Of a stretch of DNA of 64,000 nt, positions 2,219 to 60,603 are shown one piece after another. The position numbers and the translations under genes are program-made. Source of the stretch: Nonlabens sp. (lineage in GTDB: Bacteria; Bacteroidota; Bacteroidia; Flavobacteriales; Flavobacteriaceae); NCBI GenBank assembly GCA_049671565.1, contig JBATVD010000039.1, forward strand, positions 12,329-76,328. Reading direction: 5' to 3'. The notes beneath the pieces were generated by a model, which saw only the letters and a program-made list of their open reading frames with translations, did not search any database and was not told where the DNA came from. The first letter of the stretch is position 1. Each line of letters begins with the position of its first letter.

Positions 2219-3010
2219 TTACAGGTAAATATGAAAGCATTGCTGTCTTTGCTCCTTGCGCAGAAACAAAAAACCCAAGTCATACGTATCGATAGAAGCG
2301 GTTACCTGGTCATTTCTTTTCAAGCATTCCCATGCTTCATTCATATCCCGCGACCAGTAAATATCATCCAGAATGAATACAGTCTCATTGTGCGCAAATG
2401 GCAAAAGCTGCTCAAAATAGGATAATGTAGCCTTACCGTCATGATGACCGTCTATATAGATAAGGTCATATTTACCCTCTGGTTTCAGGGAAGCTTTCCC
2501 CTCGAGGTAGTCTTGAAAAATACAGTTAGTAAGGTTTACATTTGAAATACTACACTGCTTCAAATTATTATGAGTGAAATCTGCCAATTGATGAGAACCC
2601 TCAATGGTAGTGATTTCCGCTTTGGGATTTGATAATGCAAAAGCTTGAGTCGCAATTCCCAAAGATGTGCCTAATTCCAAAATACGTTTTGCATTGAAAT
2701 AGCGAGCAACTCTAAAAAGGGTTTTAGCAGTTTTGAGGGAAGAACTATTATGCTTTAAAATTTTATTTATAGCTCGTTGGTCAGATTTAAAGACTCTACT
2801 TCCTGCACCATGGTCCTCAACGGTGAGTATGGTGTTGTTTTTTTTTAAGCTTTCGCGAAAGCGAGATAGTTTCAGATACTCTTCAAAATGATTACGATCT
2901 CTCAAGCATTTTTTTTCAAATTGAAAGACAAACGGCGAGTGAATACCGTGCAGGTGAAAGGACTTTGCGAGGTGTGAGAAGTAAGTTGATATTTGAAACT
3001 GTGCCTGCAT
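2219..3010 (-). CDS. class I SAM-dependent methyltransferase (O-methyltransferase-like)
   Basis: Motif I ILELGTSLGIATQ and DLIYIDGHHD, characteristic of Methyltransf_24-like proteins. The gene contains one palindrome copy (LSRFRESL). Confidence 0.7.
   Translation of the reverse strand: MQAQFQISTYFSHLAKSFHLHGIHSPFVFQFEKKCLRDRNHFEEYLKLSRFRESLKKNNTILTVEDHGAGSRVFKSDQRAINKILKHNSSSLKTAKTLFRVARYFNAKRILELGTSLGIATQAFALSNPKAEITTIEGSHQLADFTHNNLKQCSISNVNLTNCIFQDYLEGKASLKPEGKYDLIYIDGHHDGKATLSYFEQLLPFAHNETVFILDDIYWSRDMNEAWECLKRNDQVTASIDTYDLGFLFLRKEQRQQCFHIYL
2849..2862. repeat. iterated palindrome copy (14 bp GCTTTCGCGAAAGC) inside the methyltransferase CDS
   Basis: Read directly from the sequence; perfect self-complementarity. 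Confidence 0.95.
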
Positions 3011-3015
3011 GCGAG

Positions 3016-4896
3016 CTATCCCATTTTTTCACTGAACTCAAGCCATTCCATCTCGGTTTCTTCAAGATCTGCTTTCACTTTTTCCAGCTCTATGGAGTTT
3101 TCGGTCATTTGCTCTGGATCAATCCCAGGATCTAGAAAACTGTTTTGCAGCTTCTTTTTTTGCTCTTCCAGCTTTTTGATTTTGTTTTCCAGTCGGGAGA
3201 GGTTTTTCTGCTGCTCTCGGCTAGGTCCCGAGCTTGAGTCCTCCTTTTTAAGAGAAGGTTCTTTTGCTGTTGGGGTCTCTGTTTTCTTTGAAATATCCTT
3301 TTCTAGTGAAATGTCTGTTGATCCTACATAAGCTCTGAAATCGCTGTAATTGCCAGGGAAATCAGTAATATTTCCGGAGGTATTAAACACAAAGAGATGA
3401 TCTACGATCTTATCCATAAAATAACGATCGTGGCTCACTACAATAATACAACCGGGAAAATCCATCAAAAAGTTCTCCAGCACGTTGAGCGTGGGAATAT
3501 CCAGATCGTTAGTAGGTTCATCCAAAATCAGGAAGTTGGGATTTTGAATCAGTATCGTGCACAAATACAGTCTTTTGCGCTCACCACCACTAAGTTTCTC
3601 AACGAAATCATGTTTCTTTTTACTATCAAACATGAAACGTTCCAGTAGCTGGCTTGCGCTTATTATCTTTCCTTTAGTAAGAGGTATGTACTCTCCATAT
3701 TCCTTGATCACATCGATTACCTTCTGGCCAGGATTGATATTGATACCTTTTTGAGTGTAGTATCCTATTTTAACGGTCTCACCAGTCACGATCTTACCCG
3801 TATCAGGCGGTAGCATGCCTGTTAGAAGATTTAGGAAAGTGGATTTCCCAGTACCATTTTTACCAATGATGCCAACGCGCTCACCACGCAAAAAGTTATA
3901 GGAGAAGTTTTCAAAAAGAGTATTCTCGCCAAAGGATTTGCTGATTTTGTGCAGCTCCACAACCTTGGTACCCATGCGCTCCATATTGATCTCAAGCTCT
4001 ACTTTGTGATCCTTGCGTCTATTCATTGCCGCCTCCTTGATTTGATAAAAATCATCGATGCGAGATTTGGACTTTGTGGTGCGTGCCTTAGGCTGGCGAC
4101 GCATCCAATTCAGTTCTTTTTTATAAAGTTGTTGCGCTTTTTCTTGAGTGGTTTGCTCCAGTATAAGGCGTTCTTCTTTTTTCTCAACATAATAGGAGTA
4201 GTTTCCTTTGTATGAGTATAGCTGGCCGTTATCTAATTCTATAATTTCAGTGCATACGCGATCTAGAAAATACCGGTCGTGAGTGACCATGAGGATTGTG
4301 TAATCTTCTTGTTTAAAATAACTCTCCAGCCACTCTATCATTTCTAGATCGAGATGGTTGGTAGGTTCATCCATGATTAGAAGTTGTGGATCAGAAAGCA
4401 AAGCTATGGCCATTGCTACACGCTTTTTCTGGCCTCCACTCAAGGTTTTTATCTTGATCGAGAGGTCGTCCAGTCTCAGTTTGGTTAGGATCTGTTTGTA
4501 TTTAGTTTCAAAATCCCATGCATTTGCAGCATCCATGCGATCCAGCGCATCTTGCATCTCATCAGCATCGTCTGGATTTGCCATGGCTTTTTCATACTGA
4601 GTAATAAGCTTTAAGGTGGGGATGTCGCTGTCTAAAATTACCTCTTCCACCGTCAAATCAGGCGCAAGGTCAGGCTCTTGGCTCAAGTAAGCCATGCGCA
4701 GATCGTTGCGGTAACTTACTTTTCCATCATCAGGCTGTTCCTTACCAGTAATTATGTGGAGAAGGGAGGTTTTTCCTGAACCATTTTTGGCAACGAAGCC
4801 TATTTTTTGACCTTGATTAATACCAAGGGATATATTTTTGAAGAGATATTTTTCTGCAAAGCTTCGGGAAACATTTTCAACCGTTAGGTAGTTCAT
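3016..4896 (-). CDS. ABC-F family ATPase (two NBDs, charged coiled-coil C-terminus, Uup-like)
   Basis: Two Walker A motifs (AKNGSGKTS, GKNGTGKST), two signature motifs (LSGGQKKR, LSGGERKR), no TM domain, and a K/E-rich tail. Confidence 0.85.
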   Translation of the reverse strand: MNYLTVENVSRSFAEKYLFKNISLGINQGQKIGFVAKNGSGKTSLLHIITGKEQPDDGKVSYRNDLRMAYLSQEPDLAPDLTVEEVILDSDIPTLKLITQYEKAMANPDDADEMQDALDRMDAANAWDFETKYKQILTKLRLDDLSIKIKTLSGGQKKRVAMAIALLSDPQLLIMDEPTNHLDLEMIEWLESYFKQEDYTILMVTHDRYFLDRVCTEIIELDNGQLYSYKGNYSYYVEKKEERLILEQTTQEKAQQLYKKELNWMRRQPKARTTKSKSRIDDFYQIKEAAMNRRKDHKVELEINMERMGTKVVELHKISKSFGENTLFENFSYNFLRGERVGIIGKNGTGKSTFLNLLTGMLPPDTGKIVTGETVKIGYYTQKGININPGQKVIDVIKEYGEYIPLTKGKIISASQLLERFMFDSKKKHDFVEKLSGGERKRLYLCTILIQNPNFLILDEPTNDLDIPTLNVLENFLMDFPGCIIVVSHDRYFMDKIVDHLFVFNTSGNITDFPGNYSDFRAYVGSTDISLEKDISKKTETPTAKEPSLKKEDSSSGPSREQQKNLSRLENKIKKLEEQKKKLQNSFLDPGIDPEQMTENSIELEKVKADLEETEMEWLEFSEKMG

Positions 4897-5006
4897 ATTT
4901 TTAATGTAATAGATGCAAAAATAGAGGTTCTTTGTCCTTAAACGATCATTTGCGTGAACCTAAGCCCAAACTCTTGTAAAATTCTTTCTCAATGGATAGG
5001 AATGAT

Positions 5007-5014
5007 TAGTTTTG
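5007..5014 (+). promoter_or_regulatory. Bacteroidota-type -7 box (TAGTTTTG matches TAnnTTTG) upstream of cysQ
   Basis: The motif lies 17 nt upstream of the ATG at 5032, at the head of the plus-strand locus. I saw no convincing -33 TTTG. Confidence 0.4.
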
Positions 5015-5832: not shown

Positions 5833-5834
5833 CA

Positions 5835-6083
5835 ATGGATGTTACAAGGAAAAGGCATATTGCCAAAACAATTACGTGGAGAGTAATTGCGAGCGTTACT
5901 ACTTTTGCATTGGCTTTTATCTTCTTCCAAGAAGATCCAGATGCAATCACTAAAGCTTCGGGTGTAGCTATAGCAGAGTCGATTATTAAAATGGTACTTT
6001 ATTATTATCATGAACGTTTCTGGTATAAGTCAAATTTTGGTATTGAGGGCGAAAGAACAACTGAGGATGAAGGGAAAAAATAA
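5835..6083 (+). CDS. DUF2061-like small membrane protein
   Basis: 82 aa with two predicted helices. The KTITWRV...YYYHERFW pattern matches my memory of the DUF2061 signature. Confidence 0.6.
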   Translation: MDVTRKRHIAKTITWRVIASVTTFALAFIFFQEDPDAITKASGVAIAESIIKMVLYYYHERFWYKSNFGIEGERTTEDEGKK

Positions 6084-6669
6084 TATTTTCGCCACAGATT
6101 ATACAACTGAACAGCAACTTCGCATTCAAGTAAAAAAACAGAAACCTGTTCTTTTGTGGTTTACTGGACTTTCAGGGTCTGGAAAATCTACCTTAGCTCA
6201 AGCAGTTGAGAAAGATCTGCTCCGTGAGGGTTACCATACGTTTGTTTTAGACGGAGATAATGTGAGAATGGGTTTAAATAAAGGTCTCGGTTTTTCAGAA
6301 GAAGATCGGTCTGAAAACCTTAGACGAATAGGTGAGGTAAGTAAACTAATGCTTGAAGCTGGTTTGATAGTTATAGGTACTTTTGTTTCACCATTATTAC
6401 ATCAGAGGGAAAAGGTAAGAGAAATAGTGGGAGCGTCTCGCTTTCGCGAAATTTTTATTAATACTCCCCTCGAAGAGTGCGAAAAAAGGGACGTTAAAGG
6501 ATTGTATAAGAAAGCTAGAGCTGGGGAGATTCCTAATTTCACTGGTGTTGATGCTAAATATGAGATGCCTTTGAATCCAGATATAGAGGTTTTTACCACG
6601 GGAAAATCTGTTGAAGATACATCAAAAGAATTAAAAAATAAATTAATACCGTTTATAAACAATGGATAA
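6010..6669 (+). CDS. cysC: adenylyl-sulfate (APS) kinase; true start probably the ATG at 6067
   Basis: P-loop WFTGLSGSGKSTLA, then LDGDNVR and KGLYKKARAGEIPNFTGVD. The 6067 start (MKGKNNIF) overlaps the DUF2061 stop by 17 nt. Confidence 0.9.
   Translation: MNVSGISQILVLRAKEQLRMKGKNNIFATDYTTEQQLRIQVKKQKPVLLWFTGLSGSGKSTLAQAVEKDLLREGYHTFVLDGDNVRMGLNKGLGFSEEDRSENLRRIGEVSKLMLEAGLIVIGTFVSPLLHQREKVREIVGASRFREIFINTPLEECEKRDVKGLYKKARAGEIPNFTGVDAKYEMPLNPDIEVFTTGKSVEDTSKELKNKLIPFINNG
6439..6451. repeat. partial palindrome copy (CGCTTTCGCGAAA) inside cysC
   Basis: The left arm and centre of the iterated palindrome are present, and the right arm is replaced by TTT. It encodes SRFRE. Confidence 0.6.
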
Positions 6670-7567: not shown

Positions 7568-7576
7568 GAAAACAAC

Positions 7577-14392: not shown

Positions 14393-14676
14393 AAATCTAA
14401 TTTTATTATTTCCGAATCATAAATTATCGGTGGTCAGAAGAGTTTGAAAGGCCATTTGGTAATTCGGTTATTTGAATTTTTACGGTTTTTCTCAACCTGT
14501 CTTTTCCTGTCTCAAATTTAAAGACACAGCACTTACAATTTGATTTGAAAATATTGTGTAAGCTAGCCTTAGTATTCAAGATGTTATCCAGTATTGTTTT
14601 TTGATATTCCTATGAATAAGCATATCCGTATTTATTATAGATCATATGTTGATGAAACTTGAGTGTTTGATTGATG

Positions 14677-14694
14677 TCGCTTTCGCGAAAGCGA
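14677..14694. repeat. iterated palindrome copy (18 bp TCGCTTTCGCGAAAGCGA), intergenic
   Basis: Read directly; a perfect palindrome in the wzt1-wzt2 spacer. Confidence 0.95.
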
Positions 14695-14922
14695 ACTAGT
14701 TATAATCAATAGCCCTGCATATTTATTTCTTTCAAATTCCAAAAGTATGGAACAAACTCGATCAAAGAGATGGCAAGGATTTTTATCACTGTCGTTATTT
14801 AAGCATGCTATCTTTATAAGATATTCCTTACTTTCTAACCCGTTTATTAAAGGCAAGAAAAAATGATTTCTAGTTTTTAAATCAATTTGACTTGTAATGA
14901 ATAAATCCATTTGCACAATGGC

Positions 14923-14930
14923 TATCTTTG
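14923..14930 (+). promoter_or_regulatory. -7 box (TATCTTTG) upstream of the second wzt
   Basis: Matches TAnnTTTG and lies 23 nt upstream of the ATG at 14954. It follows a 560-bp non-coding spacer. Confidence 0.4.
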
Positions 14931-14953
14931 TAAATTGATAGAAGAATTAAAAA

Positions 14954-19876: not shown

Positions 19877-20874
19877 AAAAAGTTATTGTCTTAGGTGCTA
19901 CGGGTTCTCTGGGAACCTATTTTGTAGATTATTTGGTAGATCAAGGAGTTGAAGTTATTGCTTGTGGTAGAAAAACCGAGGTAAAAGATTACTATCAAAG
20001 CAGGAATATAGAATATATTTCTGTAGATATGACTAAGCAAGAAGACTTTGCCAAGCTTCCGCAAAAAGATGTTTCCGCTATTGTATTAATTTCAGGAGCC
20101 ATGCCATCTAGGATGGAAGGTTATAAGCCACACACTTATCTAGATGTAAATGTCATGGGGACATTAAATGTGTTAGAATTCGCTCGTAAGACCGGTGTAG
20201 AAAAATTTCTTTTTACACAATCCCACTCAGACGTTGCAGGTCACTGGAACACTGGAGAGGTGATTAAGCCAGACGCACCAAGAAGTTTGAATCTCAAAGG
20301 TGATCATGCAGTTTACATTATTTCTAAGAATACAGCAGTAGATTTAATTGAGCATTACAGACAAGACTACGGTCTCAAAACTTTCATTTTCAGACTACCT
20401 ACAATTTATCTCTACAGACCTATATTAGAAATGTTTGTGAATGGTAAAAATGTCCCAATTGGATATAGGTACTTTATGGATAAAGCAATGAAGTCAGAAC
20501 CTATTGAAATCTGGGGTGACCCTTCTGTTTCAAAAGATATTGTTTATGTTCAGGACTTTAATCAAATGCTCTATAAAGCTTTACAATCAAATCTGGACAA
20601 AGGTTTCTATAACGTGGCAAGAGGAGAGTCTGTTACCTTAGAAGATCAAATACGAGGCATAATCGAAGTGTTTTCACCAGACGACAATCCATCAGAAGTC
20701 ATATATAAGCCAGAGAAAAACAATCAGAATTCTTACCATTATGATATAAGTAATGCAGTAGAAGAGTTGGGCTATTCCCCAAAATTTGATTATTTGACCA
20801 TGTTAAAAGATATGGCCAAAGAAATGAAAGGAAGTCGATTTGAGCACCTTAAAAATTCTAATGTATCGATTTGA
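19873..20874 (+). CDS. NAD-dependent epimerase/dehydratase (extended SDR)
   Basis: Rossmann motif GATGSLG and catalytic YIISK (YxxxK). Confidence 0.75.
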   Translation: MKKVIVLGATGSLGTYFVDYLVDQGVEVIACGRKTEVKDYYQSRNIEYISVDMTKQEDFAKLPQKDVSAIVLISGAMPSRMEGYKPHTYLDVNVMGTLNVLEFARKTGVEKFLFTQSHSDVAGHWNTGEVIKPDAPRSLNLKGDHAVYIISKNTAVDLIEHYRQDYGLKTFIFRLPTIYLYRPILEMFVNGKNVPIGYRYFMDKAMKSEPIEIWGDPSVSKDIVYVQDFNQMLYKALQSNLDKGFYNVARGESVTLEDQIRGIIEVFSPDDNPSEVIYKPEKNNQNSYHYDISNAVEELGYSPKFDYLTMLKDMAKEMKGSRFEHLKNSNVSI

Positions 20875-21851
20875 TGAATGGTACAGTTACTGAAAAACCA
20901 TTAGTAAGCATATCTTGTATAACATTTAATCACGCACAATATATAGAGAAGGCGATTAACGGCTTTTTAATGCAAAAGACCGACTTTGCATTTGAAGTAC
21001 TCATTCACGATGATGCATCTACAGATGGTACTGAAGAAATTATAAGGGAATTTGAGCAAAAATTCCCTTCCATTATAAAGCCTCTCTACGAAGAAACAAA
21101 TCAATGGGTAAAAGGTAGAAAAGGGTCTGTTGTGTTCAATTTTCCAAGAGCTCAAGGAAAATACATGGCTCTGTGCGAGGGTGATGATTACTGGACAGAT
21201 CCATTTAAGTTACAAAAACAAGTGGACTTTTTAGAAAGGAATCCAGAGTTTGGATTGTGTTTTCATAAAGTAAGCCTGATACATCCTGATGGGGCTATTA
21301 CAGATGACTATAAAACCAAAGTTCCAGAACACTATCAAACCCATTCAGACTTAGCAGAAAAAGGTAATTATATTCAAACACCTTCTGTGATGTTTAGAAA
21401 AGAATATTTGTTATCAACTGAAGAAGCTAACCTAAGTCCGCTAGGAGATCTATTCATGTACATGATTGTTACCAGAAACAGCAAAATAGGTTATATAGAA
21501 GACACCATGGCAGTTTATAGGATTGGTTCTGGAATCTGGAGTGTTCAGAATGATTATGAAAGGAATATCAAAACCGCCCTGACTTTTGCGCTACTTATCA
21601 AAACAAGATTGTTTACTAGAGAAATTAATGACATACTCAACGCTAGAATTTTAAATATCATAACTAGATTTATTGATCAATTAAAATCAACTGATTTGGA
21701 AAAGCTGAGTATTGTACCAAAAGTCACCGAACAAATATTTGCGAAGCTCCTGTCTGAAATAGAGCTCCACAAAAATAGAACCAATCTGCCTTTTAAGGTT
21801 CAATTGAAGCGATATGCGAATTCAAAATTGAAGTCAATGGGTTTAAAATAG
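20871..21851 (+). CDS. glycosyltransferase family 2
   Basis: Motifs SCITFNHAQYI...HDDASTDGT and CEGDDYWTDPFKLQKQVDFL (DxD region). Confidence 0.8.
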   Translation: MMNGTVTEKPLVSISCITFNHAQYIEKAINGFLMQKTDFAFEVLIHDDASTDGTEEIIREFEQKFPSIIKPLYEETNQWVKGRKGSVVFNFPRAQGKYMALCEGDDYWTDPFKLQKQVDFLERNPEFGLCFHKVSLIHPDGAITDDYKTKVPEHYQTHSDLAEKGNYIQTPSVMFRKEYLLSTEEANLSPLGDLFMYMIVTRNSKIGYIEDTMAVYRIGSGIWSVQNDYERNIKTALTFALLIKTRLFTREINDILNARILNIITRFIDQLKSTDLEKLSIVPKVTEQIFAKLLSEIELHKNRTNLPFKVQLKRYANSKLKSMGLK

Positions 21852-21926: not shown

Positions 21927-21940
21927 GCTTTCGCGAAAGC
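21927..21940. repeat. iterated palindrome copy (14-bp core; flanks TTTC/AAA give an imperfect extension), intergenic
   Basis: Read directly. Confidence 0.9.
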
Positions 21941-22118: not shown

Positions 22119-23000
22119 ATGACGTTTAAAAAAGATGATCTAATTCAACCTCTACTTACTGTTTGTATAGTGACCTATAATCATGAAGCATATATTAAGC
22201 AGTGTCTTGAAAGTGTGCTGGCGCAACAAACCAGTTTTAAATATGTAATACATGTGGGAGAGGAGGATGGTCCAGATGGGACTCGAGATATTGTTGAGAA
22301 ATATACAGACAAATATCCAGATAAAATCAAGTTGTTCAAGTGGTTGAAAAAAGATAAGATACTCGTGAATGGACTTTCTACAGGTAGATATAATTTTAAG
22401 GAAACACTGAAAAGCGCCAGATCCAAATATGTTGCATATTGTGATGGAGACGATTACTGGACAGATCCTCTCAAACTTCAAAAGCAAGTGGATTTCTTAG
22501 AGGCGCACCCAGATTTTGCAATGTGTTTTCATAATGTAGACATTTTTGACCAGGATAAAAAGGAAGTCTTCTCAAATACATCCACGAGGGAAGTTGCTTC
22601 TGCTACTGATAGTATGGAGCTCGCAAAAGGAAACTATATTCATGCAGCATCCATTGTCCTCAGGAACGATTTTACTTTTCCAGAATGGTTCAATCTAGTA
22701 TACCTTGGGGATTGGGCATTTTATATGCTACAGGTGAAAAATAGGAAGATTAAAAAGTTTCATGAAGTAATGGCTGTGTATAGGATTCACAGTTCTGGAA
22801 TCTGGGCAAAACAGAACCGTAAACTCAGAATAAGACATACCGTAGAAAGTATGGAGATCGTACTCGAGCACTTGGAAAATTCCCCACAGGTAGAGCACGC
22901 CCTTACACAAACGATTCGTAAATTGCGTTCACAACTAGAAACTGACCAGAAAATAGGTCTGATCCAAAGAATTAAGAAAAAGCTTAAACTTCTGTTATGA
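22119..23000 (+). CDS. glycosyltransferase family 2 (paralog of 20871..21851)
   Basis: The motif CDGDDYWTDPLKLQKQVDFLE is nearly identical to the same block in the neighbouring GT2. Confidence 0.8.
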   Translation: MTFKKDDLIQPLLTVCIVTYNHEAYIKQCLESVLAQQTSFKYVIHVGEEDGPDGTRDIVEKYTDKYPDKIKLFKWLKKDKILVNGLSTGRYNFKETLKSARSKYVAYCDGDDYWTDPLKLQKQVDFLEAHPDFAMCFHNVDIFDQDKKEVFSNTSTREVASATDSMELAKGNYIHAASIVLRNDFTFPEWFNLVYLGDWAFYMLQVKNRKIKKFHEVMAVYRIHSSGIWAKQNRKLRIRHTVESMEIVLEHLENSPQVEHALTQTIRKLRSQLETDQKIGLIQRIKKKLKLLL

Positions 23001-37536: not shown

Positions 37537-37556
37537 TTCGCTTTCGCGAAAGCGAA
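37537..37556. repeat. iterated palindrome copy (20 bp TTCGCTTTCGCGAAAGCGAA), intergenic
   Basis: Read directly. Confidence 0.95.
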
Positions 37557-44362: not shown

Positions 44363-45166
44363 ATGAATATTATACTAGCAGGGCCAGGTAGATCAGGAAC
44401 AACTTTGTTTAATCACATCTTTTCGCATCATGAAAAGTTTGCTTGGATTTCTGGTTGGGTAAGCAAATATCCAGCTTTTCCGCAGTTGAGCTTATTTAAT
44501 ATGCTTTATCAAAAGCAGCTGTGGGGCGTTAACTGGGCGCATGTAAGGTATTCGCCCAAACCAGCCGAAGCTTACCCTTTCTGGAATCATTTCTTCTATC
44601 CATTTGATAATTCAAATCACGCATTTGACAATAAGAGTATAACTCAATGTAGAGAAACGATATCAAAAATCAAGAAAGCATCACATAAAGAACATTTTGT
44701 CACTAAAATTACAGGTGAGACAAGGTTTGAAATATTGAATCAGGTATTTGAAGGAGATCTGAAATTTCTTTGGATAGAAAGAGATCCTCGAGTCGTGGTT
44801 TCCTCTTACATTAAACAAAAATGGGGTTATAAAAATAAACCAAAAGAGTTTGCAAATCTTTCAATGGAAGATAAGATAAATATAAATTGCTCAAGATATA
44901 TGAGTTTTTTCGAGGATTCCAAGAAAATAGAAAATAAGTCTCTTTATTTTTATGAAGATTTATGTGAGGATCCTATCGCATTTTTTACTAATATATTCAA
45001 TAAACTAGACCTAAATCTCAATGATGAATTGAAAGAAATTATTAGGAGTTGGGAGATCAAGCCTGTAGGTTGGGAGACGAAATATAAGCGCCAATATACA
45101 CAAGAACAACAATTCATGTTTGAGAACTTACTGTCTGAACCTCTGAAAGCATACAATTACCAGTAA
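44363..45166 (+). CDS. sulfotransferase family protein
   Basis: 5'-PSB-like AGPGRSGTTL and 3'-PB-like RDPRVVVSS. Confidence 0.7.
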   Translation: MNIILAGPGRSGTTLFNHIFSHHEKFAWISGWVSKYPAFPQLSLFNMLYQKQLWGVNWAHVRYSPKPAEAYPFWNHFFYPFDNSNHAFDNKSITQCRETISKIKKASHKEHFVTKITGETRFEILNQVFEGDLKFLWIERDPRVVVSSYIKQKWGYKNKPKEFANLSMEDKININCSRYMSFFEDSKKIENKSLYFYEDLCEDPIAFFTNIFNKLDLNLNDELKEIIRSWEIKPVGWETKYKRQYTQEQQFMFENLLSEPLKAYNYQ

Positions 45167-46491
45167 TGTTTAATTTTTTAAAATATCTACAACCTACTAG
45201 TTACTTTCGCTTAAAGCGAAAACAAAAAGGTAGCATATATCCTCACATAGAACAAATCAAACCTTCATTACTTAGTAAAGTGCCTAAAGATGTTTCTTAT
45301 CAGGACTCAAAGACTCAAGATTATGACCAGTCATGGAGGTTGATTCAAAAAGGTTATGTAGGTGATGGTGAAGCTTATAAGCAGTTTTCAAATCTACCTG
45401 TTGTAGATGAGTATAGATTTATACGCAAAAATTTCCATCCAGTTTGGGTGGTGTATGTTTTGGTAGTTAGGTTGCTGTCCTTTAAGAACCCAGTTCGTGA
45501 GATCTCCGCTTTCGCGAAAGCGAGATCCATAAAAAGAGTCAACGAGCATAAGGAACCCTTTGAATATCCTGAATATCAAACCTTCAACAGCTCCTTGATA
45601 GAGAAAAAGCCTCTTGTATCCATCGTGATTCCTACACTAAATAGATATCCTCATCTGAAGGACGTCATGGCAGATTTAGAAAAGCAGGACTACCAAAATT
45701 TTGAAGTGATCGTAGTGGATCAATCAGAACCTTTTCAACGTACATTTTATGAGGATTTTGATTTAGACATAAATTTGATTTATCAAGAAGAAAAAGCGCT
45801 TTGGTTAGCTCGAAATACCGCTATTCAGAAAAGTAAAGGTGATTTTATACTTTTATTTGATGATGATTCAAGAGTAGATCCAGATTGGATCAGTCAGCAT
45901 ATAAAGACACTGGATTTTTTCAAAGCTGATTTATCATCAGGAGTCTCTATTTCTACTCAAGGCGCAAAAGTTCCTGCTAGCTATGCGCATTTTGGGATCA
46001 GTGGTCAGCTGGATACGGGTAACGTTTTACTTAAAAAAGAAATTTTTAGGGATATCGGTTTATTCGATCGCCAGTTTGAAAAACAACGCATGGGAGATGG
46101 TGAGTTTGGCCTTAGAGCCTATCTAGCTGGCTATCTAAATATATCTAACCCATACGCCAAGCGTTTGCATCTAAAAGTAGGTTCAGGAGGACTGCGACAA
46201 ATGGGATCTTGGGATGGCTTCAGACCAAAAAAATGGTTTGACCCACGACCTATTCCAAGTGTCGTATACCTATTTCGTAAATATCACGGAAATTCTGCGG
46301 CGAGGTGGGCTCTTCTAAAAACGGTTCCCAGTTCAATTATGCCCTATAGATATAAAAGTAGCTCCATTATGATGTTATTAGGTGGTTTAATAAGTATATT
46401 TTTGTTACCAATTGTTCTATTACAGGTCAGAAAATCTTGGAAGCTAGCTACTCAAAAGCTAAATGAAGGTGAAAAAATTGAGAAGTTATGA
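45166..46491 (+). CDS. glycosyltransferase family 2 with ~145-aa N-terminal extension and C-terminal TM helix
   Basis: Motifs VSIVIPTLNRYPHL...VVDQS...FDDDS. The TAATG stop/start overlap with the upstream gene supports the long N-terminus. Confidence 0.75.
   Translation: MFNFLKYLQPTSYFRLKRKQKGSIYPHIEQIKPSLLSKVPKDVSYQDSKTQDYDQSWRLIQKGYVGDGEAYKQFSNLPVVDEYRFIRKNFHPVWVVYVLVVRLLSFKNPVREISAFAKARSIKRVNEHKEPFEYPEYQTFNSSLIEKKPLVSIVIPTLNRYPHLKDVMADLEKQDYQNFEVIVVDQSEPFQRTFYEDFDLDINLIYQEEKALWLARNTAIQKSKGDFILLFDDDSRVDPDWISQHIKTLDFFKADLSSGVSISTQGAKVPASYAHFGISGQLDTGNVLLKKEIFRDIGLFDRQFEKQRMGDGEFGLRAYLAGYLNISNPYAKRLHLKVGSGGLRQMGSWDGFRPKKWFDPRPIPSVVYLFRKYHGNSAARWALLKTVPSSIMPYRYKSSSIMMLLGGLISIFLLPIVLLQVRKSWKLATQKLNEGEKIEKL
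45205..45221. repeat. degenerate relative of the palindrome (TTTCGCTT-A-AAGCGAAA)
   Basis: Two 8-nt inverted arms separated by one base, read directly. It encodes FRLKRK in the GT2 N-terminal extension. Confidence 0.6.
45507..45522. repeat. iterated palindrome copy (16 bp) inside a GT2 CDS, codon phase 2 (reads SAFAKAR)
   Basis: Read directly; the codons are tcc gct ttc gcg aaa gcg aga. Confidence 0.95.
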
Positions 46492-50647: not shown

Positions 50648-52060
50648 ATGCCCAAAATAGAAAACCTTCCCTATCCTATAGTAATACTTATTCACATCAT
50701 TCTTGGAGCTGCTATTGTAACTGTTCCTTTTCTAGCCAAAATTCTTGTTTTAGTTGTAATGGGATATTTGTTGCTTAGAATTTTAAATAACTCTGATCGC
50801 AATAACGAGGTTCTGCTGGCATGTATTTACTTTGTCTGTGTAGAAGTTTTCTTTAAGATGACCAAAGCCATGCCCCTTTATGAAATGGGTAAATATTTTG
50901 TCTTGATTTGTGTTGTTTTAGGAATTTTACTGAAAGGATTTTCTTTAAAGTCTTCATTCTATGTCATTTATATTCTAACGTATATCCCTGCTATTTTTGT
51001 TGCAGCAGAAAATATAGCAATTGATGAGAGCCTCCGTAAATCCATAGCCTTCAACCTCGCTGGACCTGTCATATTGGGCGTTGTTGCCATTTACTGTTAT
51101 AACAGAAAAATTTCTAGAGAGAAATTACTAAACCTGTTTGGACTAGGGGCAGCTGCTTTAGCCATGATGGCTGTTTATGTGGTTTTTTCGGCTCCTAGTG
51201 TAGAAGAAATTGATTTCAATGCAGCTTCAAATGCTACAGCCTCTGGTGGGTATGGACCTAATCAAGTCTCTACCGCATTTGGTATCGGTATATTTTTGAC
51301 ATTTGCGAGATTTATTCTTATTAAAAAGCTATCCCATAACTTGATAGACCTCAGTCTTTTTTTAATATTTACTTACAGAGGATATTTAACTTTTTCAAGA
51401 GGAGGGGTTTTAACTGCATTTGTAATGATAGCGGCTTTCATATTTACAATAACCATTTTATATAGAAGTGGGTTTCGAAAATCTTTCATACCCAAATTTA
51501 TTTTAATAGGTGCAGGGGTCGTTTTGGCTTTTGCATATACCAGTGTAGTGACAGGAGGAATGGTGGACAATAGATATGCTAATAAAAATTCATTAGGAGA
51601 GGAAAAGGAAGACTTGACCACAGGTAGAGGTGAATTGGCAAGTTTGGAAATACAGGCTTTTTTAGAAAATCCAGTTTTAGGCATCGGTGCCGGGATGTCT
51701 AAGTATTATAGACTTAGAAAAGCAGGAATAGGAGGAGCTTCACATAATGAATTGACGCGGACTCTTTCCGAACATGGATCAATAGGGGTTTTGTCTATTG
51801 CAATGTTGGTTTTTATACCCTTGTTTTATCGATTGGGAGATCGATCCAACATATTTTTTTATAGTTTTTTAATATTTTGGTTTGCCACCATCAACCATTC
51901 CGCAATGCGTATCGCGGCACCTTCTTTTATTTATGGTTTGGCTTTGCTGAGATTCTTACCCCCAGATAAAAAATCTTTAAAAGATGAAGAGGGAAAAGAT
52001 GAATTTGTAGAGCTTATTAAAGAAAGAAAACTACTTTCACCAAGGCGCTTAAAGACATGA
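50648..52060 (+). CDS. O-antigen ligase / polymerase family membrane protein (Wzy_C domain)
   Basis: About 10-12 hydrophobic helices. A FSRGGVL block and a loop with GIGAG...ASHNELTRTLSEHGSIG (HNxxL...E.G hallmark) are present. Confidence 0.7.
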   Translation: MPKIENLPYPIVILIHIILGAAIVTVPFLAKILVLVVMGYLLLRILNNSDRNNEVLLACIYFVCVEVFFKMTKAMPLYEMGKYFVLICVVLGILLKGFSLKSSFYVIYILTYIPAIFVAAENIAIDESLRKSIAFNLAGPVILGVVAIYCYNRKISREKLLNLFGLGAAALAMMAVYVVFSAPSVEEIDFNAASNATASGGYGPNQVSTAFGIGIFLTFARFILIKKLSHNLIDLSLFLIFTYRGYLTFSRGGVLTAFVMIAAFIFTITILYRSGFRKSFIPKFILIGAGVVLAFAYTSVVTGGMVDNRYANKNSLGEEKEDLTTGRGELASLEIQAFLENPVLGIGAGMSKYYRLRKAGIGGASHNELTRTLSEHGSIGVLSIAMLVFIPLFYRLGDRSNIFFYSFLIFWFATINHSAMRIAAPSFIYGLALLRFLPPDKKSLKDEEGKDEFVELIKERKLLSPRRLKT

Positions 52061-53085
52061 AATTGGACATACTGTACATTGGCAATAAATTAAGTGTTCA
52101 TGGCTACAACGTGAGCTATATGGAAACTTTGGGGCCCTACTTGGAAAAAGAGGGGCATCAAGTGACTTACGCTTCAGATAAAAAAAATAAAATTTCCAGA
52201 TATATAGATATGTTGGTAACGCTTTCGCGAAAGCGTTATTCCGTAGACCTCGTGCTCATTGACACCTATAGTACATTGAATTACTGGTATGCAGTAAGTG
52301 TTGCGAAATTATGCCAACAATATGATATTCCCTATATACCTATTCTCCACGGTGGAAATTTGCCTCATCGTGCTAAATCATCAAGAAGTAGTTTTAAAAA
52401 ATTGATTGAAAGTGCATTTGTAGCCGTTTGTCCCAGTAAATATTTACAGGAATCGCTATCTCAGCTCGGTTTTTCTAATTTTGAGATTATCAAAAATACG
52501 GTGGCTATTAGTGATTATGATTTTAAGGCAAGAAAGAGTGCTCAGCCCAATTTATTATGGGTGCGTTCATTCTCACAGATTTACAATCCTGAGATGGCTG
52601 TTAAAGTATTGAAGTTTGTAAAGGCCAAGTATTCTAATGCCACCTTATGCATGATAGGTCCAGATAAAGATGGCTCGCTGGAACGAACTAAAAAATTAGC
52701 CCAAGGTTTAGATTTAAATGTGGAATTTACTGGGAAAATGACAAAGGAGGCCTGGAGAGCCAAAAGTCTAGATTTTGATATTTTTATTAATACCACCCAC
52801 TTTGACAACCTGCCTATAAGCCTTATAGAGTCTATGGCACTAGGACTTCCCATCGTGTCAACTAATGTAGGTGGCATTACTTACCTAATCAACGACGGCA
52901 GCACTGGGCTTTTAGTGGGTGATAAGGATGTGGATCATATGTGCGAGTCTATAGAAATGCTCATTCAATCACCAGAGCTTACCGCTTCAATCAGTGAAAA
53001 TGCAAGACTTGAAGCAGAGAAGTACGGATGGAACATCGTAAAAGAAGAATGGAAAAGGTTATTGTCTAAAGTTCCCAAGCGATGA
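52057..53085 (+). CDS. glycosyltransferase family 4
   Basis: Motif FDNLPISLIESMALGLPIVSTNVGGITYLI. It contains the longest palindrome copy. Confidence 0.8.
   Translation: MKLDILYIGNKLSVHGYNVSYMETLGPYLEKEGHQVTYASDKKNKISRYIDMLVTLSRKRYSVDLVLIDTYSTLNYWYAVSVAKLCQQYDIPYIPILHGGNLPHRAKSSRSSFKKLIESAFVAVCPSKYLQESLSQLGFSNFEIIKNTVAISDYDFKARKSAQPNLLWVRSFSQIYNPEMAVKVLKFVKAKYSNATLCMIGPDKDGSLERTKKLAQGLDLNVEFTGKMTKEAWRAKSLDFDIFINTTHFDNLPISLIESMALGLPIVSTNVGGITYLINDGSTGLLVGDKDVDHMCESIEMLIQSPELTASISENARLEAEKYGWNIVKEEWKRLLSKVPKR
52217..52238. repeat. iterated palindrome copy (22 bp TAACGCTTTCGCGAAAGCGTTA) inside a GT4 CDS, codon phase 1 (reads TLSRKRY)
   Basis: Read directly. Confidence 0.95.
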
Positions 53086-54514: not shown

Positions 54515-54738
54515 AATTGTCCTCTGTGAGGTTTGAGGTCGTCACGCACCTGAGGCATCTTTTCTTCATTTATCGCAACATATGCGATTGTGTGCATTTT
54601 ACTGATTTCCTCTGTTCCGGTTGCGATAAACTTAATGTCTTTCATAGATCCATATTCATTGAGGTGAGTCAAATGATGCTCGGCAGTTTTTTTACTGTCA
54701 GGTCCTTTAAAATCCCAAATCAACTTCAGATTTCTCAT
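54493..54738 (-). CDS. hypothetical small protein (81 aa)
   Basis: The ORF is translationally coupled at both ends (ATGA-type overlap at 54735..54738 and TGATG at 54493). I recognise no motif. Confidence 0.45.
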   Translation of the reverse strand: MRNLKLIWDFKGPDSKKTAEHHLTHLNEYGSMKDIKFIATGTEEISKMHTIAYVAINEEKMPQVRDDLKPHRGQLWTKEID

Positions 54739-55205
54739 GTATTGCTCGCTTTACTTTCTGCAAAAGTCTTGAAATCATTCATAAATTGTATGGTCTGCCC
54801 TTTAAAAAGATCGGGCTTGGTTCTACCTATCAGCCGCATGAAGCTCGTAAATTTAAAAACGCTGCGTGACTGCCATTCAGTGACTTTAGTGGTTTTGTTG
54901 TTTTTAGTGATCTCGCTTTCGCGAAAGCGGTTATACTGATAGTTCACAACTCCTTTTGAGCGATATACAGCTTCCCAGGCATGTGGCAGGTCTACTTTAG
55001 TAATTTCTTCTTCCATGGAGATTGAGGTTCCGGCAAGTCTTATTTTCATGGCACGCCTGCTACCTTCCTGTCCTATGGACGGAGTGATATTTGTCGAGCT
55101 CACGAGACCTTTTTGCCATTTTTTGAAATACTGTTGTTCTTGAAAGAGTTCCATCACAACATCGATGGGAAGTTCTACGGTGACATTTTGTTTGCTCTCT
55201 ATCAT
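54735..55205 (-). CDS. SRPBCC-superfamily (polyketide-cyclase/AHSA1-like) protein
   Basis: The size and beta-rich pattern with a terminal amphipathic helix (FMNDFKTFAE) fit this family. It contains a palindrome copy (NRFRESE). Confidence 0.45.
   Translation of the reverse strand: MIESKQNVTVELPIDVVMELFQEQQYFKKWQKGLVSSTNITPSIGQEGSRRAMKIRLAGTSISMEEEITKVDLPHAWEAVYRSKGVVNYQYNRFRESEITKNNKTTKVTEWQSRSVFKFTSFMRLIGRTKPDLFKGQTIQFMNDFKTFAESKASNT
54914..54929. repeat. iterated palindrome copy (16 bp) inside the SRPBCC CDS
   Basis: Read directly. Confidence 0.95.
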
Positions 55206-57292: not shown

Positions 57293-58136
57293 CATATCTG
57301 TCTTTTTTGTAATAGTAATAGGCTTAGTCTCGTGTGACTTTTTTGATGATTCAAAAAATGTTAGCGGCGTCATCGAGCTGGATGAGAATTATCTCACTAG
57401 GGAAGAAATAGCAAGTCTACTACCTACTGATTATACCACAGAAGATAGTTTGAGGATCGTTGAAGGGTTTCTCAAAGAGTGGATGCTAAATGTTGCATTG
57501 AACAAAAAGGCTCTTGAGAATATTCCAGATGATAGACAGAAGGAGTTGAATATGCTAGTGAGCAGATATAAGGATCAGTTGTATTCACAAGAGTATCTTA
57601 CTGAACTTACAAAGCAGAATCTCGATACAGCTATTTCAATTAATGCTATCAAATCCTACTACGAGAAGAAGAGCGAAGAGTTCAGGCTCAACGAGGATTT
57701 ATTGAGGTTGACTTATGTAAAAGTAGATCCGTTTTATGATGATCTTGATCTAATTAAGAAATGGGTTCGTAAGAATGATTCTGCCTCAATGTTTAAGTTG
57801 GATAGTTTAAAGCTTACCTATAAAGATTATTTACTCAAGGATAGTCTTTGGCTTAGAAAAAGTACGGTTTTTGAAAAAATTGATTTTTTGAATGCTTCTA
57901 ATGAAGGTTCTTATGTAAGAGAAAATAAGTTTACGGAATATACTGACTCAACAGGGCTATATTTGATGCAAATCAACAAAGTATTGAAACGCGGGAATAT
58001 TTCTCCACTTTCATTTATTAAGCCTACTATCAAACAGATTATTCTGAATAGAAAGAAATTAGAGTACAAAAAAGAATTAGAAAAAGATTTATTACAAGAC
58101 GCTAAGTTGCGTTTGAAAAACAGGTTATATGAGTAA
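57273..58136 (+). CDS. lipoprotein, SurA-N-terminal-domain-like chaperone
   Basis: Lipobox GLVSC. It sits between two PPIase genes and overlaps both. Confidence 0.45.
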   Translation: MRKKLSNISVFFVIVIGLVSCDFFDDSKNVSGVIELDENYLTREEIASLLPTDYTTEDSLRIVEGFLKEWMLNVALNKKALENIPDDRQKELNMLVSRYKDQLYSQEYLTELTKQNLDTAISINAIKSYYEKKSEEFRLNEDLLRLTYVKVDPFYDDLDLIKKWVRKNDSASMFKLDSLKLTYKDYLLKDSLWLRKSTVFEKIDFLNASNEGSYVRENKFTEYTDSTGLYLMQINKVLKRGNISPLSFIKPTIKQIILNRKKLEYKKELEKDLLQDAKLRLKNRLYE

Positions 58137-59574
58137 ATTACTAAGTGTGGTTATAGCTTTAATGGGATCAGTGATGATCTATGGGCAAACCACGGACACA
58201 GCGGCAGAAGATCAAAAAAATACTAATGAAGTGATCAGTTCACTCATTAAAAATGATTCGGTTAAAAAGCCAGTTCAGAATACACGTTTCATGATAGACG
58301 GTGTCGCTGGAGTCATAGGTGATTACGTCGTTCTAGATTCTGATATTGCCAAACAGCTGGATGTGGTTAGGAGACAGGGTAACAATGCCAATTTGTCCAA
58401 GTGCGAACTTATAGAAAGCATTCTTCAAGAAAAAATGTATGCACACCACGCTATCCAAGATAGTATTACCGTGAGCGATGCAGAAATTAATGGACGTACT
58501 GAACAGCAAATCGAGTATTTCAAAAGCGAGCTGGGTACAGATGAAGCTGTTGCACGTTACTATAGACGTGATAATATTCAGCAAGTGCGTGATGAGCTAA
58601 ATAGATCCAATCGGGATCTCCTTTTGTCTCAAAGAATGCAAGAACGACTCACGGAATCCATTGAGATAACTCCTGAAGAAGTACGACAGTTTTTTAGTGA
58701 GATCCCCAAAGAAGAACGACCACTTTTTAATACAGAGGTAGAAATGTCCCAAATAATTGTTATTCCAAAGCCTACGCAGCAAGCGGTAGATGATGTTATT
58801 GAGCGATTGAATAGATACAGGGACGATGTTTTAAATAACGGTGCAAGCTTTGCCGCACTGGCCACCTTGCATTCAGACGACATTGGTACAGAACGAAATG
58901 GTGGGGTCTTGTCCATGAAGCGCAATGACCCATTTGTAAAAGAATTCAAGGATCAAGCATTTAGTTTGCAAGAAGGTGAGATAAGTGAGCCTTTTGAAAC
59001 AGGGTTTGGATGGCATATACTCTTGGTAGATAAAGTGCGCGGTCAGGTAAGAGATGTGAGACATATTCTCCTTGAACCATTTGTTTCTACCGCTCAGGTA
59101 AATGATGCACGACAGAAACTCGATGAAATGCGTGACAAGATAATTTTGGACGAGATCGAGTTTGGAGAAGCCGCCAAACAAATTTCAGATCAAGAAGAAA
59201 CCGCAAAAAATGGTGGTAAGTTCATTAATCCACGTACAGGTGATGTGCGTCTAGAAGTTGATAAACTACCTTCAGAGCTTGCTTCGCAACTTCAGTTTTT
59301 AGAAGAGGGAGGTGTAAGTGGAATTTTTCAAGAAAAGGATGAGCAGGATCGGGTTGTGTTCAAAATAATATATGTAGAAGATAAAATTGACGATCATATT
59401 GCAGATTATTCCCTTGATTATTTAAAGATCAAGAACCTTGCAATGAATAAGAAGAAGATTGATGCGATCAAAGATTGGAGAGAGGAAAAATTAAAGGATA
59501 CTTACATAAAGATCGGTCCTGATTTTAAAGATTGTGATTTTAACGCCACATGGACCGCAGGATCAAATAACTAA
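58129..59574 (+). CDS. peptidyl-prolyl isomerase (SurA-like)
   Basis: Signal peptide, plus parvulin motifs (MSQIIV...GFGWHILLV and RHILL...). Confidence 0.75.
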   Translation: MSKLLSVVIALMGSVMIYGQTTDTAAEDQKNTNEVISSLIKNDSVKKPVQNTRFMIDGVAGVIGDYVVLDSDIAKQLDVVRRQGNNANLSKCELIESILQEKMYAHHAIQDSITVSDAEINGRTEQQIEYFKSELGTDEAVARYYRRDNIQQVRDELNRSNRDLLLSQRMQERLTESIEITPEEVRQFFSEIPKEERPLFNTEVEMSQIIVIPKPTQQAVDDVIERLNRYRDDVLNNGASFAALATLHSDDIGTERNGGVLSMKRNDPFVKEFKDQAFSLQEGEISEPFETGFGWHILLVDKVRGQVRDVRHILLEPFVSTAQVNDARQKLDEMRDKIILDEIEFGEAAKQISDQEETAKNGGKFINPRTGDVRLEVDKLPSELASQLQFLEEGGVSGIFQEKDEQDRVVFKIIYVEDKIDDHIADYSLDYLKIKNLAMNKKKIDAIKDWREEKLKDTYIKIGPDFKDCDFNATWTAGSNN

Positions 59575-59583
59575 GAATACCAC

Positions 59584-60537
59584 ATGTCAGACGTACAAGC
59601 CATAGATCATCTCGTTCAGAAAAATAAACAGCTCAAGCAAGAGATTGCTAAGGTAATCGTAGGTCAGGAGGTCGTGATAGATCAGATCTTAATTTCTATA
59701 TTTTCTGGCGGGCATTCCCTTCTCGTGGGAGTTCCCGGGCTTGCAAAAACATTGATGGTCAATACTATTTCCCAGGCGCTAGGTCTTGACTTTAAACGTA
59801 TTCAATTCACCCCAGACTTGATGCCAAGCGATATTTTGGGGAGCGAAATCCTTGATGAGAACAGGACTTTTAAATTCTTGAAAGGACCGATTTTCTCCAA
59901 TATCATTCTTGCAGATGAGATTAACAGGACACCACCCAAAACCCAAGCGGCTTTGTTGGAAGCCATGCAAGAGAAAAGTGTGACGGTTGCAGGGAATAAC
60001 TATAAATTGTCGGCTCCGTATTTTGTACTCGCCACTCAAAACCCCATTGAGCAAGAAGGTACTTATCCATTGCCTGAAGCACAACTCGACCGATTCATGT
60101 TTGCTATTAAACTTGAGTATCCAACTTTTGCTGAGGAGGTTCAGGTAGTAAAATCCACTACATCAAATCATAAACCAGAGGTGAAATCCTTATTTAATGC
60201 CCAGGAAATCATTGATTTTCAGCAGTTGATTAGACGTATTCCAGTCGCAGATAATGTCATAGAATACACTGTAGGTTTGGTAAGTAGAACCCGTCCGGCA
60301 GGTGATTCCGCTCCAAAAATCATTAAGGAATATATAGACTGGGGAGCAGGCCCTAGGGCGTCACAAAATCTTGTTTTGGCGGCTAAAGCTCACGCTGCGG
60401 TAAATGGAAAATACAGTCCAGACATCGAGAATGTAAAAGCGGTGGCTACAGGAATTTTGCGTCACAGGATGATATTAAACTACAAAGCTCAGGCAGAGGG
60501 TTATACCGAGGAGCGTATCATTCAAGAAATCCTCTAG
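59584..60537 (+). CDS. moxR: MoxR-family AAA+ ATPase
   Basis: Walker A GVPGLAKT, Walker B ILADEINR, and ATQNPIEQEGTYPLPEAQLDRF. Confidence 0.9.
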   Translation: MSDVQAIDHLVQKNKQLKQEIAKVIVGQEVVIDQILISIFSGGHSLLVGVPGLAKTLMVNTISQALGLDFKRIQFTPDLMPSDILGSEILDENRTFKFLKGPIFSNIILADEINRTPPKTQAALLEAMQEKSVTVAGNNYKLSAPYFVLATQNPIEQEGTYPLPEAQLDRFMFAIKLEYPTFAEEVQVVKSTTSNHKPEVKSLFNAQEIIDFQQLIRRIPVADNVIEYTVGLVSRTRPAGDSAPKIIKEYIDWGAGPRASQNLVLAAKAHAAVNGKYSPDIENVKAVATGILRHRMILNYKAQAEGYTEERIIQEIL

Positions 60538-60587
60538 ACATTATTTGCCTCCTTGCTTAATTATCAATAGTTCTTGTAAAGGGTTTA

Positions 60588-60603
60588 CGCTTTCGCGAAA
60601 GCG
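60588..60603. repeat. iterated palindrome copy (16 bp), intergenic
   Basis: Read directly. Flanking GTTT-A / AAAC extends the pairing with one bulge. Confidence 0.95.

Follow-up and report, generated by a model that had tools for sequence, protein, structure and literature searches.

A long, exact palindrome iterated in Dokdonia, Nonlabens and allied Flavobacteriaceae and its likeness to HIP1 and DNA-uptake sequences

Results

Copies of the palindrome in a polysaccharide locus of Nonlabens

The stretch of Nonlabens sp. DNA analysed here (contig JBATVD010000039.1, positions 12,329 to 76,328), referred to at its full length of 64 kb as the window, consists of a large polysaccharide biosynthesis cluster with its surroundings and contains nine perfect copies of a short, G+C-rich palindrome, which is the subject of this study. 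The cluster comprises genes for sulfate activation, sulfotransferases, many glycosyltransferases (GT), Wza/Wzc, Wzt-like ABC ATPases and Wzy, and is flanked by housekeeping genes encoding an ABC-F protein, peptidyl-prolyl isomerases, MoxR and aconitase. A copy of the palindrome is defined by the perfect 14-mer GCTTTCGCGAAAGC. The 16-mer CGCTTTCGCGAAAGCG is present in seven of the nine copies, and in those at 2849 and 21927 one outer base differs. The positions of the nine copies (Table 1), the seven identical 16-mers and the extents of perfect symmetry between 14 and 22 bp are as given in a first-pass annotation of the sequence, and so is the distribution of four copies between genes and five within them; the five open reading frames (ORFs) concerned are backed by Pfam or by an orthologue.

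Table 1. Perfect and truncated copies of the palindrome in the window.
Feature	Coordinates	Start of 14-mer	Setting	Coding copies read as
Perfect 14-bp copy AGCTTTCGCGAAAGCG	2849..2862	2849	In S-adenosylmethionine (SAM)-methyltransferase ORF 2219..3010(-)	(R)FRES
Truncated/decayed copy CGCTTTCGCGAAA(TT)	6439..6451		In adenosine 5'-phosphosulfate (APS) kinase gene 6010..6669(+)	
Perfect 18-bp copy	14677..14694	14679	Intergenic; 560-nt gap separating two paralogous Wzt-like ABC ATPase genes	
Perfect 14-bp copy	21927..21940	21927	Intergenic; 75 nt past stop of GT2 gene 20871..21851	
Perfect 16-bp copy	23150..23165	23151	In GT2 gene 22997..23878(+)	S-R-F-R-E-S
Perfect 20-bp copy	37537..37556	37540	Intergenic; 90 nt past stop of 36055..37449, 183 nt before 37737	
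Perfect 16-bp copy	45507..45522	45508	In GT2 gene 45166..46491(+)	A-F-A-K-A (commonest coding frame)
Perfect 22-bp copy	52217..52238	52221	In GT1 gene 52057..53085(+)	L-S-R-K
Perfect 16-bp copy (site C)	54914..54929	54915	In SRPBCC-like ORF 54735..55205(-)	
Perfect 16-bp copy (site A)	60588..60603	60589	Intergenic; 51 nt past MoxR stop, ~200 nt upstream of aconitase	

Beyond the perfect copies, three sites in the window match the 14-mer with up to three mismatches, namely the truncated copy, which had also been recognised at first pass, and two others at chance level. A further 'degenerate relative' had been proposed at 45205-45221, just inside the ORF 45166..46491. This sequence did not prove to be a copy: it forms a different hairpin, TTTCGC-TTAAA-GCGAAA, in which the same hexamer arms occur in the opposite order, and as it is probably unrelated to the palindrome it was not counted.

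The G+C content of the window was computed as 0.34-0.40, close to the one-third that had been judged by eye. In 100 dinucleotide-preserving shuffles of the window GCTTTCGCGAAAGC did not occur, and Markov models of order 1 to 5, fitted to the window after masking of the copies, predicted 1e-5 to 1e-4 copies as opposed to the nine observed. The excess is therefore ~1e5-fold, which bears out the earlier estimate that the frequency lies far above chance and calls for a mechanism. The half-site 8-mer GCGAAAGC/GCTTTCGC occurred 19 times in the window, that is, twice in each of the nine copies and once elsewhere, and 10 of the 13 occurrences of TCGCGA fell within copies, leaving three outside. As both words are nearly confined to the copies, the enriched unit is the whole palindrome and not its parts. 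Four CpGs fall within the 16-mer; the G+C content of the genome is 36%.

Anatomy and exactness of the unit

An alignment of 193 copies yielded the logo TTnC-GCTTTCGCGAAAGC-GnAA, with no conserved sequence beyond ±4 nt. In intergenic half-sites, T occupied position -3 (A at +3) in 89%, resulting in the 20-bp dyad TnCGCTTTCGCGAAAGCGnA. Including the flanks described below, the unit is the dyad TnC-GCTTTCGCGAAAGC-GnA plus ~18 nt on each side, with a total footprint of ~50 bp.

Across 866 kb, the 14-mer occurred in 195 perfect copies and with one, two or three mismatches in 17, 18 and 25 cases, respectively. The one-mismatch forms are over-represented, yet ~11-fold rarer than the perfect ones; the most frequent two-mismatch variant in the related genomes was GCTTTCGCGAAATT, the form also seen in the truncated copy at 6439-6451, which was found three times. 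Mismatches were spread over stem and loop positions alike, with no compensatory changes in the variants listed. CpG transitions made up 5 of the 17 one-mismatch variants, an excess that is not significant.

It had been suggested at first pass that the arms form mini-hairpins in RNA or a cruciform in DNA. The predicted hairpin, with a 6-bp stem and a 4-nt loop, reaches only -4.3 kcal/mol, and this suggestion could not be sustained: the weak fold, a loop as invariant as the stem and the lack of compensation indicate that the sequence, not the fold, is kept. Each strand of the palindrome does contain GCGAAAGC, which has been described as an extraordinarily stable DNA mini-hairpin (PMC13037366); however, this is a property of the single-stranded oligonucleotide d(GCGAAAGC), and the nearest-neighbour model of the folding tool misses that stability. 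An extended hairpin was rejected, as the left and right flanks pair no more than their composition predicts. The search for a structured RNA family likewise gave nothing: no Rfam model was hit at the gathering score, and nothing relevant appeared at E<=5.

Placement relative to genes

Of 207 copies, 124 (~60%) were located within ORFs of at least 90 aa and 83 were non-genic. With these ORF calls a fraction of 0.86 of the sequence is coding, so that intergenic DNA is ~4-fold enriched for copies. The occurrence within genes as well as between them, which had been pointed out before, sets the palindrome apart from the strictly intergenic repetitive extragenic palindromes (REP) and miniature inverted-repeat transposable elements (MITEs). 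Among genic copies, the frame GCT-TTC-GCG-AAA-GCG, encoding A-F-A-K-A, accounted for 69 of 117 and the other two frames for 23 and 25, a preference in the direction that amino-acid frequencies alone would predict. A mild N-terminal excess was observed, and several copies encode the ends of signal peptides (L014, L055, L023 and site B, see below). A protein-level cause was nevertheless rejected, since the first 40 codons contained only 20 of 110 genic copies and intergenic copies make up 40% of the total.

Tandem, divergent and convergent spacers contained 54, 10 and 7 copies, as the background spacer length predicts. In tandem spacers, 22 of the 54 copies followed the upstream stop codon within 20 nt, and almost none was found within 20 nt of a start. 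Taken together, the intergenic enrichment, the post-stop sites, the signal peptides, the A-F-A-K-A frame and the indifference to spacer class form the pattern of copies placed where they are least harmful, and thus of a genome-level signal rather than a gene-level regulatory element.

Composition of the flanking DNA

On each strand, the ~18-20 nt located 5' of the palindrome were depleted of C and rich in G+T, and by symmetry the 3' side was depleted of G and rich in A+C; by ~40 nt the composition had returned to baseline. The mean number of C per 18-nt flank was 1.54 compared to 3.37 in the background, with a unimodal distribution that was alike on both sides of a copy. Words of the type GTTGT and TTGTG peaked five-fold at -16 to -9. 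The skew was observed around intergenic copies, around genic copies of all three frames and also around 40 copies on phage contigs. At synonymous third positions upstream of the palindrome, C was reduced (0.062 vs 0.176) and T raised (0.478 vs 0.362), with G at 0.24 vs 0.17 and A at 0.22 vs 0.29, and the downstream positions were the mirror image. As the skew persists at synonymous sites, in intergenic DNA, in all frames and in phages, the pressure acts on the DNA itself, and over ~50 bp.

The skew could arise from extended protein contacts, from amino-to-keto deamination wherever a strand is repeatedly exposed as a single strand, or from selection for GT-rich pairing strands. A mutational asymmetry between replication strands was dismissed as its cause, as both sides of one copy are equally depleted (r = +0.11). 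A promoter was rejected as well, as the flanks show no enrichment of the Bacteroidetes -7 box TAnnTTTG.

Gain, loss and retention of copies

The window was compared with its three closest syntenic relatives, the loci L161, L162 and L163. At the coding site C, aligned with MAFFT, the palindrome is perfect in the window and L163, whereas L161 has one mismatch (GGTTTCGCGAAAGC) and L162 six, with no indel. Site B (~58150 in the window) lies in the signal peptide encoded by the orthologue of ORF 58129..59574; all three relatives carry the palindrome, and the window has unrelated sequence of equal length. Indel-free substitutions also distinguish L163 at 19324 from L161 (GCTCTCGCGAAAGC) and L105 from L090 (GCTTTTGCGAAAGC), and at three sites in related phages of 66-95% identity only substitutions were found, one polymorphism being C>T at a CpG. 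In total, all cleanly aligned differences in presence or absence, at no fewer than eight independent sites in coding host and phage DNA, are indel-free substitutions; the one alignable intergenic case is ambiguous. No target-site duplications above control were detected at any tested boundary, and neither conserved flanks, nor terminal repeats around a body, nor insertion polymorphism were observed as expected of REP, of REP doublets forming hairpins (REPINs) or of MITEs. Wherever the alignment was clean, point substitution was thus shown to turn near-matches into copies in place, and also to undo them, without any insertion.

In ordered orthologous comparisons at 64-80% identity, the 14-mer was perfect in 16 of 24 cases and had one mismatch in four, whereas control 14-mers in the same alignments, part of which are biased by their ascertainment, were perfect in 3.1%. 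The unbiased set selected for MoxR, i.e., the window and L161-163, showed the same trend of retention. In Nonlabens tegetincola (L003, 606) a perfect copy occupies the position matching 2849 of the window, with flanks too diverged for blastn. Copies, once made, hence stay perfect far longer than the adjacent DNA.

Site A is common to all four genomes, ~190-220 nt upstream of aconitase. The DNA on its left is non-homologous, L161 carrying an extra gene for a 368-aa lipoprotein-like product there, and because homology between the relatives resumes exactly at the palindrome, site A may mark a recombination boundary. The segment from MoxR to site A varies from 52 to ~1240 nt (7437-8595 in L161, 10955-11648 in L163 and 6791-7161 in L162). 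A search for other strains matched the window to one Logan contig (run SRR28062231), and the aconitase protein had no record; as no near-identical strain was found, intergenic gains could not be polarised.

Distribution among bacteria and phages

A scan for the 16-mer with one genome per species matched at least 118 blocks. Among the matches listed, ~100 blocks belonged to Dokdonia, Nonlabens or allied Flavobacteriaceae, often with two to three copies per 8 kb, and the remaining ones were single copies in unrelated high-GC genomes. As an unbiased control, 80 metagenomic loci syntenic for MoxR were taken from across the family (1.03 Mb). The three closest of them (L161-L163, with 83-85% identity in MoxR) contained 12 copies in 55 kb, while none was present in the other 77 (977 kb). 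Both surveys agree in limiting the palindrome to a single clade made up of Dokdonia, Nonlabens and allied Flavobacteriaceae, a lineage restriction as in HIP1 (highly iterated palindrome 1) and uptake sequences. The unbiased density, 21 copies in 119 kb for the window and the three relatives, is ~1 per 5.7 kb, which would extrapolate to ~450-700 copies per genome. In the literature searched, neither the 12- or 14-mer nor any account of iterated palindromes in Dokdonia or Nonlabens was found.

The 16-mer was also present in 42 IMG/VR stretches, among them about a dozen contigs with two to six copies (L125, L157, L140, L150, L134 and others). Two multi-copy phage contigs that were checked encode a baseplate hub, a tape-measure protein and an integrase. 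Temperate phage contigs carry the palindrome at host-like density. Their copies share the flank signature and the substitution polymorphisms of the host copies, so that the palindrome is not a restriction target avoided by phages; whatever creates or favours it applies to the temperate phage DNA of the clade as well. Among the cultured phages of INPHARED only chance 17-nt matches, in Mycobacterium prophages, were found, in a search that is blind to matches of 14-16 nt. As a near-unambiguous marker, the 16-mer could be used to assign metagenomic contigs and phages to the Dokdonia/Nonlabens host clade.

A comparable iterated palindrome was not found in the 77 other Flavobacteriaceae loci, of up to 21 kb each, a sample per genome that is too small for a firm negative. 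Several other repeats were recorded in these bacteria. In the unrelated flavobacterial contig L217 the word AAAATGCCATTTTT is common to five sites (3105, 6617, 18011, 20256 and 20380) and forms the hairpin loop in at least two of them, with stems differing by site, an odd repeat family. At 19862-20145 of L171, a low-GC flavobacterial contig, a G+C-rich repeat of ~30 nt, GGCACGAGCGGGACGCTCGCGCTAGCGTG, occurs in four copies (two inverted pairs) within 300 nt. Canonical bidirectional terminators consisting of A-run, hairpin and T-run recur with the same stem within a locus, as in L172 (16518/18143) and L203 (16961/18174), and L175 carries the palindrome TTGTTGCGCAACAA twice, 65 nt apart (3852/3917). 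The recurring palindromes of L172, L203 and L175 might be lineage-specific palindromes of other flavobacteria.

Further features of the locus

Within the polysaccharide cluster (8879-53085) and its surroundings, sulfate-related and sulfotransferase genes are found at 677-1450, 5032-8833 and 17382-19190. They include a complete sulfate-activation set (a CysQ-like phosphatase, APS kinase, CysD of the 3'-phosphoadenosine 5'-phosphosulfate (PAPS) reductase family and the GTPase CysN) and at least four sulfotransferases beside ~15 glycosyltransferases. As sulfate activation and sulfotransferases adjoin the glycosyltransferases, the gene content suggests that the locus makes a sulfated exopolysaccharide. 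The tandem Wzt-like ABC ATPase genes (13157-16192) are 60% identical, and their 560-nt spacer, which contains one copy of the palindrome, is unusually long. No tRNA and no Rfam family were found in the window. A weak cmscan match to the SurA small RNA at 52435-52558 (23 bits compared to a gathering score of 100, E = 0.037) is very likely due to chance.

Discussion

A highly iterated palindrome and its possible role

Enrichment, placement, flanks, gain by substitution and lineage limits all agree with the first-pass annotation, which had likened the palindrome to HIP1 or uptake sequences rather than to REP or MITE elements. On balance, we think that it is a clade-specific highly iterated palindrome and belongs in one class with HIP1 and with the DNA-uptake sequences known from Neisseriaceae and Pasteurellaceae. 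All 14-16 positions are held equally and compensatory changes are lacking, which points to the double-stranded sequence as what is read. The reader would most simply be a homodimeric, sequence-specific DNA-binding protein that is present in the clade but not in its relatives, and selection for the interaction between reader and site, or biased fixation, would maintain the sites.

Among the possible functions, self-DNA recognition ranks first, followed by a nucleoid-organising array and a by-product of methylation or repair. A role as a 'self-DNA' signal in DNA uptake and/or homologous recombination is put forward tentatively. It fits the presence on phages, the permissive positions, the GT-rich flanks and what is known of the family, in which natural competence occurs in some members and a preference for own DNA has been reported for Riemerella columbina (PMC7965970). 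Under this proposal, alleles bearing the signal would be preferentially acquired or retained, and the G+T-rich flanks may represent the strands exposed as single strands and loaded for pairing. A more specific version, which we regard as speculative and rather unlikely, is that the palindrome is the first sequence-specific 'self-DNA' signal of Bacteroidota, a 20-bp dyad that is recognised, and possibly opened or nicked, when DNA is taken up or recombined. On either side of the dyad, the 3'-ending strand would then be repeatedly single-stranded; opening or nicking at the dyad would explain both a spread by biased fixation and the symmetric amino-to-keto skew (C>T, A>G) in the flanks, even at synonymous sites.

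Several points weigh against likening the palindrome to HIP1 and uptake sequences. Its density of ~1 per 6 kb is 5-10 times below that of DUS (DNA uptake sequences), USS (uptake signal sequences) or HIP1, and no known uptake sequence comes near it in length and exactness. One-off variants abound among the known uptake sequences (PMC1939737); their rarity here is more in line with strong selection on each site than with a weak drive. The keto-rich flanks allow at least three explanations. Origin by substitution was shown in coding and phage DNA, and the single alignable intergenic gain or loss (L030 vs L013) can be explained by four substitutions or by a 5-nt indel. The pairs drawn from blocks selected for the motif (L001-L118) are biased towards shared sites. 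Competence has been established for some Flavobacteriaceae but not for Dokdonia or Nonlabens. Finally, the scan of ~40 of the 70 window ORFs of at least 100 aa revealed neither a cognate protein nor a methyltransferase or competence gene; the restriction-modification or RAYT/transposase genes that had been considered as partners at first pass were not encountered in this set either.

Alternative explanations

A possible but less likely explanation is that the copies form an array of sites at which a protein specific to the clade acts in nucleoid organisation, segregation or topology, comparable to Noc and its binding sites (NBS), MatP/matS, SlmA, ParB/parS or gyrase at REP. A perfect dyad of 16-20 bp is typical of homodimeric DNA binders, the placement is indifferent to gene class, orthologous sites are kept, and the ~50-bp footprint would be compatible with wrapping. 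HIP1 itself has been read as a chromosome-structure site by Xu et al. (PMC5861425). However, the estimated 450-700 sites per genome are essentially invariant, and the copies carried by temperate phages at host density are not obviously needed for the structure of the host chromosome. Known site systems of the nucleoid type comprise tens of sites and tolerate degeneracy. In addition, strand-asymmetric keto flanks are unusual for the recognition of duplex DNA.

We consider it improbable that the palindrome is a by-product or a tool of methylation and repair, as in Elhai's model of HIP. Here, an orphan methyltransferase would act at TCGCGA or CGCG, and methyl-directed or very-short-patch repair would convert near-matches and protect existing copies. 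The TCGCGA core and the four CpGs in a genome of low G+C are consistent with this, as are the CpG transitions among the one-mismatch variants and the C>T polymorphism at a CpG in phages, and the process would act on any resident DNA, prophages included. Every alternative HIP of the cyanobacteria is found together with a methyltransferase that matches it (PMC4390886). Yet a methylase site of 4-6 bp leaves the equal constraint on 14-20 positions and the 18-nt flanks unexplained, the hexamer TCGCGA itself is not enriched outside the copies, the excess of CpG transitions lacks significance and the ORF scan revealed no cognate DNA methyltransferase. The only report of TCGCGA methylation in the literature searched concerns MGIIA archaea (PMC9516812).

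A hairpin acting at the level of RNA, i.e., a terminator, an attenuator or a REP-like stabiliser of 3' ends, appears very unlikely. A 6-bp stem with a 4-nt loop is possible, and the cluster of copies shortly past stop codons in tandem spacers would suit such a role. The fold is weak, however, the loop does not vary more than the stem and there is no covariation, most copies lie in ORFs with no excess between convergent genes, and the T-rich 5' and A-rich 3' sides are the reverse of the A-run/hairpin/T-run terminators found in the same family (L172, L203), so that the features of an intrinsic terminator are absent.

That a transposase has spread the copies as miniature mobile palindromes (REP/REPIN, MITE or terminal inverted repeats abutting each other) is hardly credible. 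In its favour, the copy number per genome is like that of REP in E. coli, intergenic DNA is enriched, and a 5-nt indel could account for one intergenic difference. However, target-site duplications and a conserved body are lacking, most copies lie in ORFs with the reading frame kept, the clear presence/absence differences are substitutions at unchanged length, and no transposase or RAYT was detected in the scanned ORFs.

Comparison with known systems

Among the palindromic systems, parS (TGTTTCACGTGAAACA) and the Noc-binding sites (ATTTCCCGGGAAAT) share with the flavobacterial palindrome perfect dyads of 14-16 bp with TTTC...GAAA arms that are sometimes genic and are read by homodimers; they differ in numbering ten to ~70 sites per genome, and the half-site spacing is 2 bp shorter in the flavobacterial palindrome. 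REP, BIME (bacterial interspersed mosaic elements) and REPIN of Proteobacteria are likewise palindromic and similar in copy number per genome, but they are imperfect, strictly extragenic, variable and mobilised by RAYT, whereas the flavobacterial palindrome is exact, mostly genic and made by substitution.

DUS and USS, too, are clade-specific and over-represented and accumulate by point mutation in permissive frames and at gene ends. USS have flanks of biased composition, and related phages also carry copies. In contrast to the flavobacterial palindrome, DUS and USS have non-palindromic cores of 9-12 bp at ~1 per kb and occur in graded mismatched forms (PMC1939737); the mismatch gradient of the palindrome is much steeper than that reported for DUES (PMC1939737).

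The closest likeness is to HIP1, which is conserved, unexplained in function and possibly linked to transformation (PMC5861425; 10.1101/2024.09.10.611283; 10.64898/2026.06.24.733823). Like HIP1 (GCGATCGC), the flavobacterial sequence is a G+C-rich perfect palindrome that is hyper-abundant, lineage-specific and present in coding and non-coding DNA, with extensions that preserve the dyad, gain by substitution, conservation at orthologous positions and no evident function at the level of genes (PMC4390886, PMC5861425). It is not HIP1 proper, which belongs to cyanobacteria, since both phylum and sequence differ; it measures 14-20 bp as opposed to 8-10 bp and, at ~170 as opposed to 300-2700 per Mb, is ~5-10 times sparser. 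One-off variants are common for HIP1 and rare here, and the flavobacterial palindrome has keto-rich flanks of ~18 nt and no known cognate methyltransferase. To our knowledge, a flank signature of ~50 bp of this type has not been reported for HIP1.

The palindrome is thus HIP-like but resides in Bacteroidota; it has twice the length, is sparser and far more exact, and carries a ~50-bp flank signature. HIP1 has remained unexplained for 30 years, one reason being that there was hardly another example of its kind, and the flavobacterial palindrome constitutes an independent second system, longer and more exact. Its hosts are cultivable and well-sequenced marine flavobacteria, and owing to the sharp boundary of the clade, the cognate protein should be identifiable by phylogenetic profiling. 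The length of the site suits clean pull-downs, and the flank signature provides a mechanistic clue that HIP1 lacks.

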